Shown here: piece after piece, positions 9,348-33,460 of the stretch | How the letters are laid out: every line of letters starts with the position of its first letter | How positions within the stretch are numbered: the stretch's first letter is position 1 | Assembly: GCA_949285665.1 (NCBI GenBank) | Contig: CASDYC010000001.1 | Coordinates: 456,107-520,106, forward strand | Reading direction: 5' to 3' | DNA from: an uncultured bacterium | GTDB lineage: Bacteria; Bacillota_I; Bacilli_A; RFN20; CAG-826 | Length of the DNA: 64,000 bases | Translations under genes and position numbers: made by a program | Notes under the pieces: model-generated | Told to the model about the DNA's origin: nothing | What the model saw: only the letters and a program-made list of their open reading frames with translations | Databases searched by the model: none

Positions 9348-9421
9348 TGGTGCCTCGTGCCAGAGTCGAACTAGCCATTAATCCTTACCATGGATCCGTT
9401 ATACCGATTAACTAACAAGGC
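9348..9421 (-). tRNA. tRNA-Thr (anticodon GGT)
   Basis: Hand-folded cloverleaf on the minus strand. The acceptor stem GCCTTGT/ACGAGGC has one G-U pair. The D-stem is GTTA/TAAC. The anticodon stem is GATCC/GGATT with loop ATGGTAA. The T-arm is GCTAG-TTCGACT-CTGGC. It ends with discriminator A and an encoded CCA. Confidence 0.8.
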
Positions 9422-27434: not shown

Positions 27435-27815
27435 TTAAAACTTATCAAAATTTAATTTATTAGCATCTGTTAATCCTACAACTTCATGAATTGGAAGTGT
27501 AAAAATAATTCCAGCTCCAACTGTATCTAAACCCGCCGCTTCATACATTGCTTTTAAAATTTCATCACTTAATTCTTTTTTAACAACAATTAATAAAACT
27601 TCTTTTTCTGGAACAATATCAATTCCATAAAATTTTCCAACTTCTTTATTACCTGTTCCACGAGCTTGAAAAACAGTCCCACCAGTTGCACCTTTACTTT
27701 TTGCAGCATTTATTGCTAAATCGGTAGAACCCTTATTTAAAATACAGACAATTAATTCATATTTTTGTTCATCTAAATTATTTAATTCTTCTGCTTTCTT
27801 ATCCATATTAATCAA
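27435..27815 (-). CDS. PII-like (GlnB-fold) signal transduction protein
   Basis: 126 aa. The pattern KYELIVCILNKGSTDLAINAAKSKGATGGTVFQARGTG fits the PII beta-alpha-beta fold and its T-loop region. Confidence 0.6.
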   Translation of the reverse strand: MINMDKKAEELNNLDEQKYELIVCILNKGSTDLAINAAKSKGATGGTVFQARGTGNKEVGKFYGIDIVPEKEVLLIVVKKELSDEILKAMYEAAGLDTVGAGIIFTLPIHEVVGLTDANKLNFDKF

Positions 27816-28257
27816 ACTCCTTTTCTTTCATAAAACCCATCTTTGTAAAATATTTATATAAACTAACTCCCGCCATCGAACTTAAATCGATTGTAAAGAA
27901 AATTCCTTTTGCATAACGAGAAATTTTAAATCGATCGATTAAATCATTTTTAACTTTATCATAATCATCTTGAGAAATAATTCCCATAACAATTGTTTTT
28001 TTATCTTCAAATAAGTCATTTAAATAAGTTTCTTTACTTGCAGTACCAACTCCGTGAAAAGCAAAAGATGCTGAAACTTTATTTTTTGAAAGAATATTTT
28101 GAATGGCTTCGCCTTGTCCTTTATTGACAATTACAATTAATAAAAATAACTTCATAATTTTATTAGAATCTTCAAAATTAGAAGAAGTTTTAGATTTAAT
28201 ATTTCTTCTTTTTGGAATTATTTTATTTCTTATATCTGATATTTTTTGTTTAACCAT
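27808..28257 (-). CDS. Second, divergent PII-like protein
   Basis: Core KLFLLIVIVNKGQGEAIQNILSKNKVSASFAFHGVGTAS. Its stop overlaps the downstream PII-like start by 8 nt. The true start may be the internal ATG encoding MKLFLL (about 28155), which would give roughly 115 aa. Confidence 0.5.
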   Translation of the reverse strand: MVKQKISDIRNKIIPKRRNIKSKTSSNFEDSNKIMKLFLLIVIVNKGQGEAIQNILSKNKVSASFAFHGVGTASKETYLNDLFEDKKTIVMGIISQDDYDKVKNDLIDRFKISRYAKGIFFTIDLSSMAGVSLYKYFTKMGFMKEKEFD

Positions 28258-28268
28258 AAATCTAATTT

Positions 28269-29780
28269 TTAAGCAAAATGAATAATTTGATTTTCATTTT
28301 CTTCTTTAATCCTTTCACGAGCTTTTTTGTAAATTAATTTTGCTTTGATCACACTATTTAAACCTAATAATTCAACAACAAGCAATGGAATCATCGCAAC
28401 AATAGCAGCAACTCCAAAGCTTGTACTACTTGCAAGACTAACGTCATTATTATATTTTTCTAATGCCATACCACTTGCAATTGGAGTAATAAAAGCAGCT
28501 GTTAATGTACCACTTGCAACACCACCACTATCAAATGCAACTGCGACAAATTGTTTTGGAACAATTAATGCTAAAGCAAAAATTAAAATGTATCCAGGAA
28601 CAATTATATATACTAAATTTATCTCATAAATAACTTTATATAATGACAATAATAGAGCAAAAATATTTCCAACAGCTAATGTGAAAAATAATTGTTTTCT
28701 TTTAATAATACCTTCGCTTAAATTTTCAACTTGTTCACCTAAAATTCTAACTGAAGGTTCGGCATAAATAATAGCTGCTCCAATAATTATAGAAAATAAT
28801 AAGACATAATATGGTTCATCAACAAGTGATTTTCCCATACTTCTTCCAATTGGAATTAAACCTAGATTTGCACCAGATAAAAAGAAAATTAATCCAATAA
28901 ATACAATTAAAATTCCAATTAAAATATGAATGATTTCTTTTAATTTTGATTTAATAAATATGAAATCATAAATTAAATAAAATGCTAATATTGGAAAAAT
29001 TGAAATACTGGTACTAACTAATGTATCAATTAATGAAGATGAAATTGTTTGTCCAACAGTTACAATTTGGTCAACTTCACCAGTTAAATCTAGTTTTTGA
29101 TTTGCAAAAATAAAATAAATTAATAATACAATTAATGGTCCGCTTGAAACAATTCCAGTAAAACCAAATGATGTATCATCTTTATTATTTATTTTTTTAA
29201 TACTTGATAAACCAACACCTAAAGAAATAATAAATGGAACAGATACACTACCAGTTGTGATTCCACCACTGTCAAATACAAATGGAATTACATTTTGATC
29301 AACTAAAATTGCTAATGCAAATATTAATCCATAAAGTGCTAATAAAGTATAAGTTATATTTATGTTAAATAATATTCTAAGAGAAGCTAATATAAACATA
29401 ATACCGATTCCAAGGGCAATAATTGAAATTAATAACCATTTATTAGTATTAATTTGATCAACCAATAATTCCAAATCAGGTTCTGCTAATGTAATAATAA
29501 ATCCAATTAAAAAGACAACAACAAAAATTAAGTAAATATTTTTATGTTTTGTCAAAGAATTACCAATATTATTTCCAATTTTTCCAAGAGATAAATCCGC
29601 TCCAAAAGAAAATATACTTGCGCCAATTATTAAAAAAGATACTCCTATCCCAAATAAAATTAACTCGTCATTATTAGAAATTGGAGTAACATTAAAATAA
29701 CAAAAACAAAGTACAATTAAAACAATTGGTACTAAAGAAGCAAATGTTATCGAAAAGTTCTTCCACAATTCTTTGAGCAT
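28269..29780 (-). CDS. Internally duplicated polytopic membrane protein (DUF1538-like), a putative transporter
   Basis: Two homologous halves. Each carries a G-rich helix followed by an AEP motif (LTLAEPDLELLVDQ in the first, IIYAEPSVRILGEQ in the second). About 12 TM. Its stop is 11 nt upstream of the PII-like gene. Confidence 0.55.
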   Translation of the reverse strand: MLKELWKNFSITFASLVPIVLIVLCFCYFNVTPISNNDELILFGIGVSFLIIGASIFSFGADLSLGKIGNNIGNSLTKHKNIYLIFVVVFLIGFIITLAEPDLELLVDQINTNKWLLISIIALGIGIMFILASLRILFNINITYTLLALYGLIFALAILVDQNVIPFVFDSGGITTGSVSVPFIISLGVGLSSIKKINNKDDTSFGFTGIVSSGPLIVLLIYFIFANQKLDLTGEVDQIVTVGQTISSSLIDTLVSTSISIFPILAFYLIYDFIFIKSKLKEIIHILIGILIVFIGLIFFLSGANLGLIPIGRSMGKSLVDEPYYVLLFSIIIGAAIIYAEPSVRILGEQVENLSEGIIKRKQLFFTLAVGNIFALLLSLYKVIYEINLVYIIVPGYILIFALALIVPKQFVAVAFDSGGVASGTLTAAFITPIASGMALEKYNNDVSLASSTSFGVAAIVAMIPLLVVELLGLNSVIKAKLIYKKARERIKEENENQIIHFA

Positions 29781-29814
29781 ATTTTTATTATAAATAAAAA
29801 TATGATAATAAAAA

Positions 29815-29847
29815 AGAAAAAATGCTTCAATTGAAGCATTTTTTTCT
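29815..29847. terminator. Bidirectional terminator
   Basis: aatgcttcaattgaagcatt is a perfect 8-bp stem (29821-29840). An A-run flanks it upstream and T7 downstream. Confidence 0.6.
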
Positions 29848-29867: not shown

Positions 29868-31274
29868 TTATTTATTTTTAGATTTAATATATTCGTCAAT
29901 TGCTTTAGCTGCTTTTTTACCAGCACCCATTGCAAGAATAACAGTTGCAGCACCAGTTACTGCATCACCACCAGCATAAACGCCGACTCTTGATGTTTCT
30001 CCAGTTTCTTCTTTTGCAATAATACAACCATGATCATTTGTTTCTAATCCTTTAGTTGTCTTTTTAATTAATGGATTTGGTGAGGTACCTAAAGCCATAA
30101 TTAAGCAATCAATTGGTAAAACGTATTCACTACCTTCAACTGGAACTGGTCTTCTTCTACCAGATGCATCTGGTTCTCCTAATTCCATTTTAATTACTTT
30201 AACACCACAAACATGTCCATTTTCATCACCTAATACTTCAACCGGATTATTTAAAGTATCAAAAATAATTCCTTCTTCTTGAGCGTGATGAATTTCTTCT
30301 TTTCTAGCAGGCATTTCTTCAATGTCTCTTCTATAAATAATATGGACTTCTGCTCCTAATCTTAATGCACATCTTGCAGCATCCATTGCAACGTTGCCAC
30401 CACCAACTACTGCAACAACTTTCGAGTGAGCAATTGGAGTTTCACTATCTTCTTTGTAAGCTTTCATTAAGTTAGTTCTTGTTAAAAATTCATTAGCACT
30501 ATAAACACCATTTAAATTTTCACCTTTAATTCCCATAAATTTTGGAAGTCCAGCACCTGAACCAACAAATACAGCCTCAAATCCTTGTTCAAACAATTCG
30601 TCAATTGTAATAGTTCTTCCAATAACGGTATCAGTGTAAACTTTAACACCTAAATCAATTAAGTTTTCAACTTCTTTTTGAACAATAACTTTTGGAAGTC
30701 TGAATTCTGGAATACCATAAACTAAGACACCACCTGCTTTATGTAAAGCTTCAAAGACTGAAACTTCATAACCTAATTTAGCTAAGTCACCAGCACAAGT
30801 TAATCCACTTGGGCCAGCACCAACAATTGCAACTTTATGACCATTTGATTGAGGTTTTACAGCTTTTTCAGTTGAATTATTCATATGCCAATCAGCAACG
30901 AATCTTTCAAGTCTTCCAATTCCAACTGGTTCTCTATTAGGGCCTTTTCCTCTTACACATCTTGATTCACATTGACTTTCTTGAGGACAGACTCTACCAC
31001 AAACAGCTGGAAGAGAGCTTGATTTATGAATTATTTTATAAGCACCTTCGTAATCTTTTTCTTTAATTTTTGCAATAAAGTTTGGAATGTCAATTGAAAC
31101 AGGACATCCTTCAACACAAAGTGGTTTTGGACAATGTAAACATCTATTAGCTTCATCTAAAGCTAATTCTTCTGTATAACCTAATGCAACTTCTTTAAAA
31201 TTTTTAGCTCTTTCTTTTGGATGTTGACTTGGCATTTTGTTTTTGTCAGGTCTCATGTTAAATTTTGCTGGCAT
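29868..31274 (-). CDS. nfnB: NADPH-dependent GltD-family oxidoreductase (NfnB/SudA-like large subunit)
   Basis: Two [4Fe-4S] motifs (CLHCPKPLCVEGCP and CGRVCPQESQCESRC). FAD and NAD(P) Rossmann folds (VAIVGAGPSGLTCA and VAVVGGGNVAMD). Confidence 0.7.
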   Translation of the reverse strand: MPAKFNMRPDKNKMPSQHPKERAKNFKEVALGYTEELALDEANRCLHCPKPLCVEGCPVSIDIPNFIAKIKEKDYEGAYKIIHKSSSLPAVCGRVCPQESQCESRCVRGKGPNREPVGIGRLERFVADWHMNNSTEKAVKPQSNGHKVAIVGAGPSGLTCAGDLAKLGYEVSVFEALHKAGGVLVYGIPEFRLPKVIVQKEVENLIDLGVKVYTDTVIGRTITIDELFEQGFEAVFVGSGAGLPKFMGIKGENLNGVYSANEFLTRTNLMKAYKEDSETPIAHSKVVAVVGGGNVAMDAARCALRLGAEVHIIYRRDIEEMPARKEEIHHAQEEGIIFDTLNNPVEVLGDENGHVCGVKVIKMELGEPDASGRRRPVPVEGSEYVLPIDCLIMALGTSPNPLIKKTTKGLETNDHGCIIAKEETGETSRVGVYAGGDAVTGAATVILAMGAGKKAAKAIDEYIKSKNK

Positions 31275-31276
31275 AA

Positions 31277-32119
31277 TTATTTGACCTCCTTTTTAAATAA
31301 ATTACAGGTCTCTTCGTATTTCTTTCTTTCAAAATCACGATACATTTTATTTCTATTGATGGCTTCATCAAAATCAACTTCATGGCCATCAAAATCTGGT
31401 CCATCAACACAAGCAAATTTGACTTTACCACCAACTGTTAATCTACAGCAACCACACATTCCAGTTCCATCAATCATAATTGGGTTTATGGAAACAACAG
31501 TTTTGACGTTGTATTTCTTTGTTAATAAACAAACAAATTTCATCATAATGAGTGGTCCAATACAGATAACTCTATCAAATTTTTCACCTTTTTTGAGTAA
31601 TTCTTCTAAAGCGTTAGTTACTAAACCTTTTGTTCCTACACTTCCATCATCAGACATCAAAATATATTCATCTGATACTTCTTTAAATTCATCTTCTAAA
31701 ATTACTAAATCTTTATTTCTAAAACCAACAATAGAAGTAACTTTTGCACCATTTTCATGTAAAGCTCTAGCAACTGGAAGAGCAATTGCACAACCAGCAC
31801 CGCCACCAATTACACAAACTTTATTAAATCCTTCTACTTCGCTTGGTTCACCTAATGGACCTACAAAATCTTGTAAATAATCTCCAACTTGTTTGTGTGC
31901 CAATAACAATGTTGAACCACCAACAACTTGGAAAATAATTTCAACAGTACCTTCTTTTTTATTTGTACCAGCTACTGTTAAAGGAATTCTTTCACCTTCT
32001 TCATTAACTCTTAAAATGATAAATTGTCCAGCTTTAGCTTTATTTGCAACTAAAGGAGCTTCAATATCCATCATTATAACAGTTGGATTTAAATCTCTAC
32101 GTCTTACAATTTTAAACAT
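31277..32119 (-). CDS. nfnA: PyrK/FNR-like electron-transfer subunit with a C-terminal [2Fe-2S] cluster (NfnA/SudB-like)
   Basis: FAD/NAD-binding barrel and Rossmann fold (VCVIGGGAGCAI). Cluster cysteines GMCGCCRLTVGGKVKFACVDGP. It lies 2 nt upstream of the GltD-like gene. Confidence 0.7.
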   Translation of the reverse strand: MFKIVRRRDLNPTVIMMDIEAPLVANKAKAGQFIILRVNEEGERIPLTVAGTNKKEGTVEIIFQVVGGSTLLLAHKQVGDYLQDFVGPLGEPSEVEGFNKVCVIGGGAGCAIALPVARALHENGAKVTSIVGFRNKDLVILEDEFKEVSDEYILMSDDGSVGTKGLVTNALEELLKKGEKFDRVICIGPLIMMKFVCLLTKKYNVKTVVSINPIMIDGTGMCGCCRLTVGGKVKFACVDGPDFDGHEVDFDEAINRNKMYRDFERKKYEETCNLFKKEVK

Positions 32120-32275: not shown

Positions 32276-33460
32276 TTAGAAATCAACTTTTTGTCCGTAG
32301 TAACAATAAGTTAATAATTTTTCCATTTCTTCTTGGCTAGGTTGTCTTGGATTGCTACCTGTACATGCATCAGCAATTGCATTTTTAGCAATATCATGAA
32401 CTTTAGCTTTGAATTCATCTTCTGGAACCATTCCATTATTGAAATCTTTAATACAAGCTGGAATGTTTAAAATCTTATTGTAGTCTTCAATTTTCTTACA
32501 AAGTGCTTCAATTTTGTTTTCTGCACTACCAACGATACCACATGCTTCAGCAATTTCTACATATCTTGCAGCAGCAACTGGGTTTTTAGAATTGAATCTA
32601 ATAACGTTTGGTAAATACATAGCATTAGCACATCCATGTGGAATATGACCATTTTTAAATGCTGCACCAGTTTTGTGAGCCATTGAGTGGACAATACCAA
32701 GTAATGCATTAGAGAATGCCATACCTGCTAAACATTGAGCATTGTGCATTTGATCTCTTGCGACGTGGCATCCATTGTATGAATCTGGTAAATATTCAAA
32801 AACCATTTTAATAGCTTGCATTGCAAGTGGATCTGTATAAACACTGTGAACTGTTGAAACATAAGCTTCAATAGCATGTGTTAAAGCATCCATACCTGTA
32901 TAAGCTGTTAAGCTTTGTGGCATTGAATAAGCAATTTCTGGATCAACAATAGCGACATCTGGAGTAATATTGAAGTCTGCTAATGGATATTTAATACCTT
33001 TCTTATAATCTGTAATAACAGCAAATGCTGTAACTTCAGTAGCTGTACCGCTTGTAGAAGAAATAGCACAGAATTTTGCTTTAGTTCTTAATGTTGGGAA
33101 TGAGAATGGTGTAATTAAATCTTCAAATTTAACATTTGGATATTCATAGAATGCCCACATAGCTTTTGCAGCATCAATTGGGGATCCTCCACCAATAGAA
33201 ACAATCCAATCAGGATTGAATTTTCTCATTGCTTCAGCGCCTCTGTAGACAGTTTCAACACTTGGATCTGGTTCAACACCATCAAAAACTTCTACTTCCA
33301 TACCAGCTTCTTTAAGATAATTAACTGTTTTATCTAAGAAACCAGTTTTTTTCATTGAATGACCACCAGTTACAACAATAGCTCTGCTACCTTTTAAATT
33401 TTTAAGTTCAGCTAATGAACCAGCGCCATAATAAACATCTCTTGGTAATGTAAAACGCAT
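32276..33460 (-). CDS. Iron-containing (group III) alcohol dehydrogenase
   Basis: Fe-ADH signatures GGGSPIDAAKA and the His cluster HSMAHKTGAAF..HG. 394 aa. Confidence 0.8.
   Translation of the reverse strand: MRFTLPRDVYYGAGSLAELKNLKGSRAIVVTGGHSMKKTGFLDKTVNYLKEAGMEVEVFDGVEPDPSVETVYRGAEAMRKFNPDWIVSIGGGSPIDAAKAMWAFYEYPNVKFEDLITPFSFPTLRTKAKFCAISSTSGTATEVTAFAVITDYKKGIKYPLADFNITPDVAIVDPEIAYSMPQSLTAYTGMDALTHAIEAYVSTVHSVYTDPLAMQAIKMVFEYLPDSYNGCHVARDQMHNAQCLAGMAFSNALLGIVHSMAHKTGAAFKNGHIPHGCANAMYLPNVIRFNSKNPVAAARYVEIAEACGIVGSAENKIEALCKKIEDYNKILNIPACIKDFNNGMVPEDEFKAKVHDIAKNAIADACTGSNPRQPSQEEMEKLLTYCYYGQKVDF

Follow-up and report, generated by a model that had tools for sequence, protein, structure and literature searches.

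Two PII-fold proteins encoded beside an internally duplicated DUF1538 membrane protein

Few signal proteins are as widespread as the PII proteins, but a clear understanding of a transporter partner has been reached in few cases only: AmtB, SbtA and cyanobacterial nitrate and urea systems. Every well-studied pair of a PII protein and a transporter concerns ammonium or inorganic carbon (bioRxiv 10.1101/2023.08.10.552651). Here we describe an operon of three genes found in a stretch of 64,000 nucleotides (nt) of contig CASDYC010000001.1 (assembly GCA_949285665.1, positions 456,107–520,106), which we call the window. It comes from an uncultured bacterium with a low G+C content, which recurs across many metagenome assemblies. 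The operon codes for a membrane protein of the DUF1538 family, followed by two different PII-fold proteins, PII-A and PII-B. It is a real and widely conserved unit, which stands outside the GlnK-AmtB, SbtB-SbtA, NifI and PstA systems.

This unit is best filed as a variation on the PII-transporter theme of GlnK-AmtB and SbtB-SbtA. As in these two systems, a gene for a small PII-fold protein lies directly beside a transporter gene, and both the T-loop and the inter-subunit cleft are conserved. Unlike them, it has a transporter from an unrelated family with no solved structural relative, and two PII paralogues or a fused tandem in place of one homotrimer; it also lacks the canonical ATP/2-oxoglutarate residues. 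It is a member of neither system: the adjacent membrane protein matches DUF1538 only, with no match to the Pfam families of AmtB or SbtA, and no amtB or sbtA gene is found beside the PII genes. DUF1538 would add a further family to the transporter partners of PII.

Within DUF1538 the only characterised member is UmpAB of Halomonas zhaodongensis. UmpA and UmpB are both required, form a heterodimer in the membrane and carry out Na+(Li+,K+)/H+ antiport in E. coli KNabc (PMC5484666). UmpAB and the window protein belong to the same Pfam family and have two homologous units of about seven helices which act together. They differ in that UmpAB is encoded by two genes, whereas the window transporter has both units in one chain.

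We favour a reading of the whole operon as a PII-gated secondary transporter, probably for cations and protons, and give it a probability of roughly 0.6. That the three genes form a dedicated module, with a transporter regulated by PII, appears likely because the synteny holds in both directions, fused genes occur, and both cleft and T-loops are conserved.

Linkage of the DUF1538 and PII genes

An alignment of the transporter was used to scan 185,579 species genomes. It gave at least 600 matches, many of them in gut Clostridia and Bacilli, so the module is common. Of these we retained the 80 best loci, which are 33–39% identical to the query and come mostly from metagenome-assembled genomes of Clostridia and Bacilli, with some isolates. 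All of these 80 loci, the best of at least 600 matches, have a PII-A domain and then a PII-B domain directly downstream of the DUF1538 gene. PII-A is a separate gene in 38 of them, in one of which the contig ends before PII-B. In the other 42 loci A and B are fused into a single gene of 225–280 amino acids (aa); the order is always A then B. Culturable carriers of the module are Paraclostridium bifermentans DSM 14991, Mediterraneibacter glycyrrhizinilyticus and Diplocloster modestus.

The reverse test used an alignment of PII-B, which was compared with metagenome contigs; this alignment is narrow and biases the sample towards Clostridia-type sequences. Enough upstream sequence was present in 70 loci, whereas 10 more were cut by contig ends. 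PII-A and DUF1538 are found upstream of PII-B in 69 of the 70 informative loci. We have also detected a natural fusion protein of 654 aa, in which a two-repeat DUF1538 transporter continues into PII-A; a PII-B of 120 aa starts 1 nt downstream. It is present in two samples or sequencing runs, and a xanthine/uracil permease gene adjoins it on the opposite strand. Such a fusion fits the predicted cytoplasmic C-terminus of the transporter. The pairing of DUF1538 with PII is not due to chance: the functional link which the original prediction had proposed is borne out by the synteny in both directions and by the natural fusions.

Clustering of the neighbours in the 80 loci gave no third conserved neighbour; the next most frequent real one is a pseudouridine synthase, found in 9 loci. 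This bears on a different view of the membrane protein. AmtB sequesters PII at the membrane, and GlnK bound to AmtB controls other proteins. The DUF1538 protein could likewise be mainly a sensor or docking site for a PII pair whose targets are elsewhere, held or released according to the state of the transporter. The established case of AmtB speaks for it, and so does the fact that no further gene is conserved beside the module which could point to an output. However, the conserved neighbours of the 80 loci offer no candidate soluble target either, and the covalent fusion of the transporter with PII-A, together with the near-absolute co-occurrence in both directions, argues for the transporter itself as partner and target. 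We find a mere docking function improbable and prefer a transporter which is itself gated by the PII pair.

In RefSeq the two kinds of genes are labelled 'DUF1538 domain-containing protein' and 'P-II family nitrogen regulator', so that their adjacency is visible in databases, although it is apparently undiscussed. Our search of the literature found no paper describing the DUF1538-PII pairing. A paper on Borrelia BB0017 was considered as a precedent and rejected: it concerns a different PII-like membrane protein, YitT/DUF2179.

Two other features of these loci should be mentioned. In several loci of Faecousia/Oscillospiraceae PII-B is closely followed by a gene for RNase P RNA, which is read from the opposite strand; this is apparently a gene order peculiar to the lineage, with no functional link. 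Three contigs labelled Alistipes shahii, Bacteroidia and Bacteroidales (L029, L043 and L057) carry a Bacillota-like module, which suggests either horizontal transfer or errors of binning or labelling.

The membrane protein and the PII pair

Pfam finds two full-length copies of DUF1538 (PF07556) in the 503-aa membrane protein, with 348.1 bits (E 1.7e-104) against a cut-off of 22.6. Its N-terminal and C-terminal halves are 31% identical across 178 residues (BLASTP, E 6e-20). The internal duplication noticed in the original prediction is thus confirmed by the PF07556 search proposed as a check, and the motifs quoted there are present: LAEPDLELLVDQ at aa 98–109 and YAEPSVRILGEQ at aa 339–350. We aligned 28 homologues, 33–72% identical, in order to determine residue conservation and loop charge. 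All of them have E100-P101 and E341-P342, which belong to the AEP motifs, and D170 and D417, which belong to the FDSGG motifs: each repeat has one invariant glutamate and one invariant aspartate. The AlphaFold model is all-helical, with a predicted local distance difference test (pLDDT) value of 85.7 and a predicted template modelling (TM) score of 0.86. In each repeat FDSGG lies between two short helices of the model and AEP at a helix break. No protein in the PDB is structurally related to this confident model.

The orientation of the two halves was studied from the lysine and arginine content of the loops, which were taken from the AlphaFold model and counted over the 28 homologues. In the N-terminal half the N-terminus and loops 2-3, 4-5 and 6-7 are rich in these residues; their difference with the other loops has a mean of +7.2 and a range of +4 to +11. 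The equivalent loops of the C-terminal half are poor in them, with a mean difference of −2.7, or −8.2 if the basic C-terminal tail is counted. Since the bias is reversed, by the positive-inside rule the two halves of seven segments should be oppositely oriented, which agrees with the inverted repeat proposed from the window alone. The model and the charges indicate a 7+7-helix inverted repeat, with both termini predicted to be cytoplasmic and the linker between the halves outside. The N-terminal repeat is predicted to have its N-terminus inside and its C-terminus outside, and the C-terminal repeat to be inverted with respect to it.

In Methylocystis rosea and Chelativorans sp. the arrangement is different: certain plasmids carry two adjacent half-size DUF1538 genes. 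The first gene is nearer to the N-terminal half of the window protein (98.6 vs 65 bits) and the second one to the C-terminal half (111 vs 63 bits). By these scores each half is orthologous to one gene of the alphaproteobacterial split pairs, so that the two kinds of half predate the fusion. The split pairs are followed by a single PII gene, with about 104 bits on the model of the B family. This lone PII is of the B type, which makes PII-B the universal partner within the family; PII-A seems to have joined it as a paralogue in those sampled lineages whose transporter is fused.

PII-B passes the Pfam P-II model (PF00543) with 36.7 bits, the cut-off being 25. Residues G26, G39, G42, G43, T44, G50, K68 and G99 are invariant across its family. 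Their numbering was mapped onto the sequence of E. coli GlnB: G42, T44, G50, K68 and G99 correspond to the cleft positions G27, T29, G35, K58 and G89, and G43 is at the position of M28, beside the cleft residues. With GlnB as a ruler, most of the invariant residues fall in the canonical inter-subunit ligand cleft. The equivalent of K58 is kept. The B-loop is DTVGAGIIF instead of the canonical TGxxGDGKIF, and at GlnB positions 90, 101 and 103 the family has I, G and a variable residue. The T-loop is about five residues shorter than in GlnB, with a conserved EKFFGI-like segment and no YRGAEY, the segment of the Y51 modification site. We rejected PII-B as a canonical GlnB or GlnK: it reaches 16.6 on the NCBIfam GlnB equivalog, against 202, and the clamp residues R101/R103 are absent, as are Q39 and YRGAEY. 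To judge from its residues, the cleft looks functional, although it is no standard ATP/2-oxoglutarate site.

PII-A is more difficult to recognize. It has no Pfam match, and only 9 of the 68 members of its family match P-II even weakly. This strong divergence, together with the absence of the GGT motif of PII-B, might suggest that PII-A is a decayed duplicate without a role, or even that the adjacency of the genes has no functional meaning. However, PII-A is present in all 80 loci at 25–40% identity, it conserves the motifs GxGTA, K87, G118 and Y134 and a confident fold, and it has been fused in frame repeatedly to PII-B and once to the transporter. Such an explanation is therefore very improbable, and PII-A is probably a working part of the regulator. 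It also retains equivalents of G35, K58, G89 and the C-terminal glycine. BLASTP aligns it with PII-B at E 3e-7, and the profiles of the two families match with an hhalign probability of 99% (E 3e-18). The AlphaFold model (pLDDT 85.7) has the order beta-alpha-beta-beta-alpha-beta, preceded by an N-terminal extension and followed by a C-terminal helix. Foldseek matches it with structures of PII, GlnK, CutA, CPII and SbtB at a probability of 1.0, with target TM-scores mostly of 0.6–0.75. Both small proteins have a PII fold, as had been proposed: Pfam identifies it in PII-B, hhalign and the model in PII-A. The refuting condition named in the original prediction, small proteins without this fold, has thus not arisen.

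An exhaustive search of the PII-A family gave 351 cluster representatives at E<=1e-3, many of them with about 220–280 aa and two matched stretches. A conserved aromatic-acidic motif (FE, FD or YD, often with N or H two residues on) closes the N-terminal extension of PII-A. The extension is absent from the fused A-B proteins and might contact the membrane or the transporter. In two members, P0003 (239 aa, from a 1.4-kb ENA contig) and P0243 (335 aa), a PII-A-like N-terminal part is joined to a uridine kinase/PRK or a TsaD domain; they are probably chimeras of gene calling or assembly and not real architectures.

The solved structure closest in sequence to PII-B is a 105-aa chain of 9P1X (E 6e-9), the nitrogenase-NifI1,2 supercomplex of Methanosarcina. 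This chain fits NifI1, as judged from its twelve copies and the 2:1 stoichiometry. NifI is a 2:1 heterotrimer which inhibits nitrogenase, and according to a 2025 paper NifI1,2 is the only PII known to be heteromeric. In both cases two PII paralogues are encoded side by side, and NifI1 shares with PII-B the short length of the T-loop. The differences are that GDGR and IRT are retained in NifI1 but replaced in PII-B by GxGI and G, that the target here is a membrane protein, and that the natural A-B fusions impose a 1:1 ratio. Membership of NifI1/NifI2 was rejected: there are no nif genes in the flanks, and the basic residues which bind the nucleotide are not retained. The PDB sequence search with PII-B recovered canonical PII, GlnK and NifI1. 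SbtB was not recovered, and PII-B was not assigned to it.

Proposed mode of action

We propose that the operon is a self-contained unit, in which a secondary transporter is encoded together with a regulator of its own. The data establish how the genes are arranged, which folds and conserved residues the proteins have, how strictly the genes are linked in both directions, and that they are fused in nature; physical binding, gating, substrate and effector are inferred. The DUF1538 protein would be a 14-helix carrier of the DUF1538/UmpAB family with two homologous halves of seven helices in opposite orientation, each with conserved carboxylates at the helix breaks, namely the glutamate of AEP and the aspartate of FDSGG. 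PII-A and PII-B, encoded in a fixed order and probably made in equal amounts, would most likely assemble at the cytoplasmic side into an oligomer of both A and B, which may open or plug the carrier by means of its short conserved T-loops. This gating, for which GlnK on AmtB and SbtB on SbtA are the models, would be set by a small intracellular ligand in the inter-subunit clefts. The carrier would most likely exchange monovalent cations for protons. In the natural A-B fusions the two domains are necessarily present at 1:1, so that a single ring of three subunits is impossible and a six-domain assembly is implied.

The effector would not be the canonical pair of ATP and 2-oxoglutarate; another adenine nucleotide is possible. 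The retained glycine scaffold suggests a ligand which contains adenine, and the loss of the phosphate-clamping residues argues against canonically bound ATP. Cyclic di-AMP (c-di-AMP) commonly controls K+ and cation/proton transporters in Bacillota; as the effector of this operon it is a guess. PstA/DarA, a family of PII-like receptors of c-di-AMP in Gram-positive bacteria, resembles our proteins in having a PII-like fold in Bacillota and non-canonical ligand residues. We rejected membership of this family: neither PII-A nor PII-B matches it in the Pfam or PDB sequence searches. Unlike PstA/DarA, the B-type partners of DUF1538 also occur in Alphaproteobacteria.

Taken jointly, these proposals would make the DUF1538 proteins inverted-repeat ion carriers of a new structural class, under the control of two PII paralogues in an obligate 1:1 hetero-oligomer which senses a non-canonical effector (c-di-AMP, AMP or an ion). 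In its entirety this proposal is rather doubtful. If it were true, this complex would join NifI1,2 as the second known heteromer of PII proteins and would be the first to be assembled from six domains, and the cation and pH homeostasis of many gut Bacillota would be tied to signalling of the PII type. The predicted fold of the transporter has no solved counterpart, and its regulator consists of two different PII domains, as separate proteins or as one fused chain. Through this system one could directly approach what DUF1538 does, a new effector specificity of PII and the 1:1 adaptation of threefold-symmetric regulators by two paralogues.

For the transported process we tentatively suggest the exchange of alkali cations for protons, at somewhat less than even odds. 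The assignment is based on the homology with the UmpAB family, the four invariant carboxylates at helix breaks and an association with pH: DUF1538 is among the transporter features which predict optimal growth pH in a machine-learning study (PMC13255231), a weak correlative hint. The original prediction had described both substrate and effector as uncharacterised. For the substrate this has to be amended, since a distant relative, UmpAB, is reported to be an antiporter of Na+(Li+,K+)/H+ (PMC5484666), the window protein being no ortholog of it.

Most of the remaining probability for the substrate goes to another small solute. With the same architecture and the same gating, the carrier might handle a nutrient that supplies carbon or nitrogen, or an ion such as bicarbonate, ammonium or an organic acid, and the PII pair would report the metabolic status. 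It would then resemble the well-studied PII-transporter pairs, which all concern ammonium or inorganic carbon (bioRxiv 10.1101/2023.08.10.552651), and it would be in line with the structural matches of PII-A, which include SbtB and the bicarbonate-binding CPII. The distance of the transporter from the UmpAB ortholog thresholds also favours such a cargo, as does the fact that the antiport claim for UmpAB comes from one heterologous assay. However, that assay is the sole experimental datum in the DUF1538 family, and it favours cations. In addition PII-B lacks the 2-oxoglutarate/ATP residues Q39, K90, R101 and R103, genes of nitrogen or carbon assimilation are not among the conserved neighbours of the 80 loci, and the Pfam families of AmtB and SbtA are not matched by the membrane protein. 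We consider another cargo of this kind unlikely, and retain the PII-gated cation/proton carrier as the preferred reading.

Several points weigh against this preference. On the equivalog models of UmpA and UmpB (NCBIfam NF041627 and NF041628) the window protein reaches 136.6 bits against 490 and 133.7 against 500: scores so far under the cut-offs indicate a homologue of UmpAB and not an ortholog. The antiport of UmpAB was reported in one study with a heterologous host; the clone ended at umpB, without the downstream gene, and PII is not mentioned (PMC5484666). The known PII-transporter pairs handle ammonium or bicarbonate, not Na+ or K+. PII-B has no conserved equivalents of R38, Q39, K90, R101 and R103, so that nucleotide binding is not assured; PII-A lacks R49 as well as the GGT strand motif. 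The predicted topology derives from the charge bias and the AlphaFold helices. The sole exception in the reverse test, L140, is a metagenome contig of 2.1 kb with an A/B pair and no DUF1538 upstream: here an N-terminal GNAT-like fragment runs in frame into the PII-A domain, with PII-B in its usual place downstream. Either a rearrangement or a chimera of assembly could explain it.

Operon layout and neighbouring genes

The features of the operon and its surroundings are collected in Table 1. The G+C content of the window is about 25%, and lies between 20 and 33% throughout its length. The stop codon of the transporter and the ATG of PII-A are separated by 11 nt, as had been claimed before. The 8-nt overlap claimed between PII-B and PII-A depends on a start at TTG 27815. 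It is not upheld by the gene callers, which in four independent assemblies of this organism picked the ATG at 27806, 1 nt past the stop of PII-A, giving a protein of 123 aa. The three genes are closely spaced whichever start of PII-B is used.

Promoter-like sites are no commoner in the consensus scan than in shuffled sequences. No Rfam element, and hence no riboswitch which could point to the substrate or effector, was found upstream of the operon, either in the window or in 34 related loci. At gathering thresholds a tRNA is the single Rfam RNA gene in the 64 kb.

Table 1. Position of the features discussed in the text. Positions refer to the window, except for those preceded by the number of a related locus.
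Feature	Position	Strand	Remarks
DUF1538 membrane protein gene	28269–29780	minus	503 aa; 14 transmembrane segments predicted
N-terminal repeat	29067–29780	minus	aa 1–238; AEP at nt 29478–29486, FDSGG at nt 29262–29276
C-terminal repeat	28272–29066	minus	aa 239–503; AEP at nt 28755–28763, FDSGG at nt 28521–28535; basic cytoplasmic tail predicted
PII-A gene	27808–28257	minus	149 aa; divergent PII-fold, basic N-terminal extension of about 35 aa
PII-A N-terminal extension	28152–28257	minus	residues 1–35; basic, length variable among separate-gene PII-A
PII-B gene	27435–27806	minus	123 aa, PII family; alternative start TTG 27815 would give 126 aa
GGAG ribosome-binding site	27817–27820	minus	within the 3' end of PII-A, 10 nt before the PII-B ATG; direct sequence reading
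Promoter-like site TTGAAG-17 nt-TATCAT	29802–29830	minus	precedes the transporter gene; consensus scan only, weak
Terminator-like hairpin of the upstream gene	29817–29844		12 pairs and T run; upstream boundary of the operon
Oxidoreductase gene pair	29868–32119	minus	280 aa and 468 aa
Iron-type alcohol dehydrogenase gene	32276–33460
Open reading frame of 439 aa	23474–24793	plus
tRNA gene	9351–9421	minus
Transporter-PII-A fusion, with PII-B downstream	L088 3001–5329; L089 3001–5329		654 aa
PII-A behind GNAT-like fragment, then PII-B	L140 739–1723
RNase P RNA genes	L009 2865–3221; L013 3794–4143; L021 2909–3255; L031 4323–4669; L065 5812–6149

In the window the operon is flanked by oxidoreductase and glycosidase genes. 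The two genes directly upstream code for a protein with the Pfam domain DHODB_Fe-S_bind (280 aa) and one with Fer4_20 and Pyr_redox_2 (468 aa). The DHODB_Fe-S_bind/Fer4_20 pair resembles the NADH-dependent ferredoxin:NADP oxidoreductase of NfnAB type or GltD-like enzymes. An iron-type alcohol dehydrogenase is also found nearby; neither it nor the oxidoreductase pair is kept beside the module in other genomes. On the other side of the operon, amid glycosyltransferase genes, there is an open reading frame of 439 aa for which no Pfam family is recorded in related contigs. It has a signal-like N-terminus and a hydrophobic C-terminal anchor followed by RKKK, and may be a surface protein.

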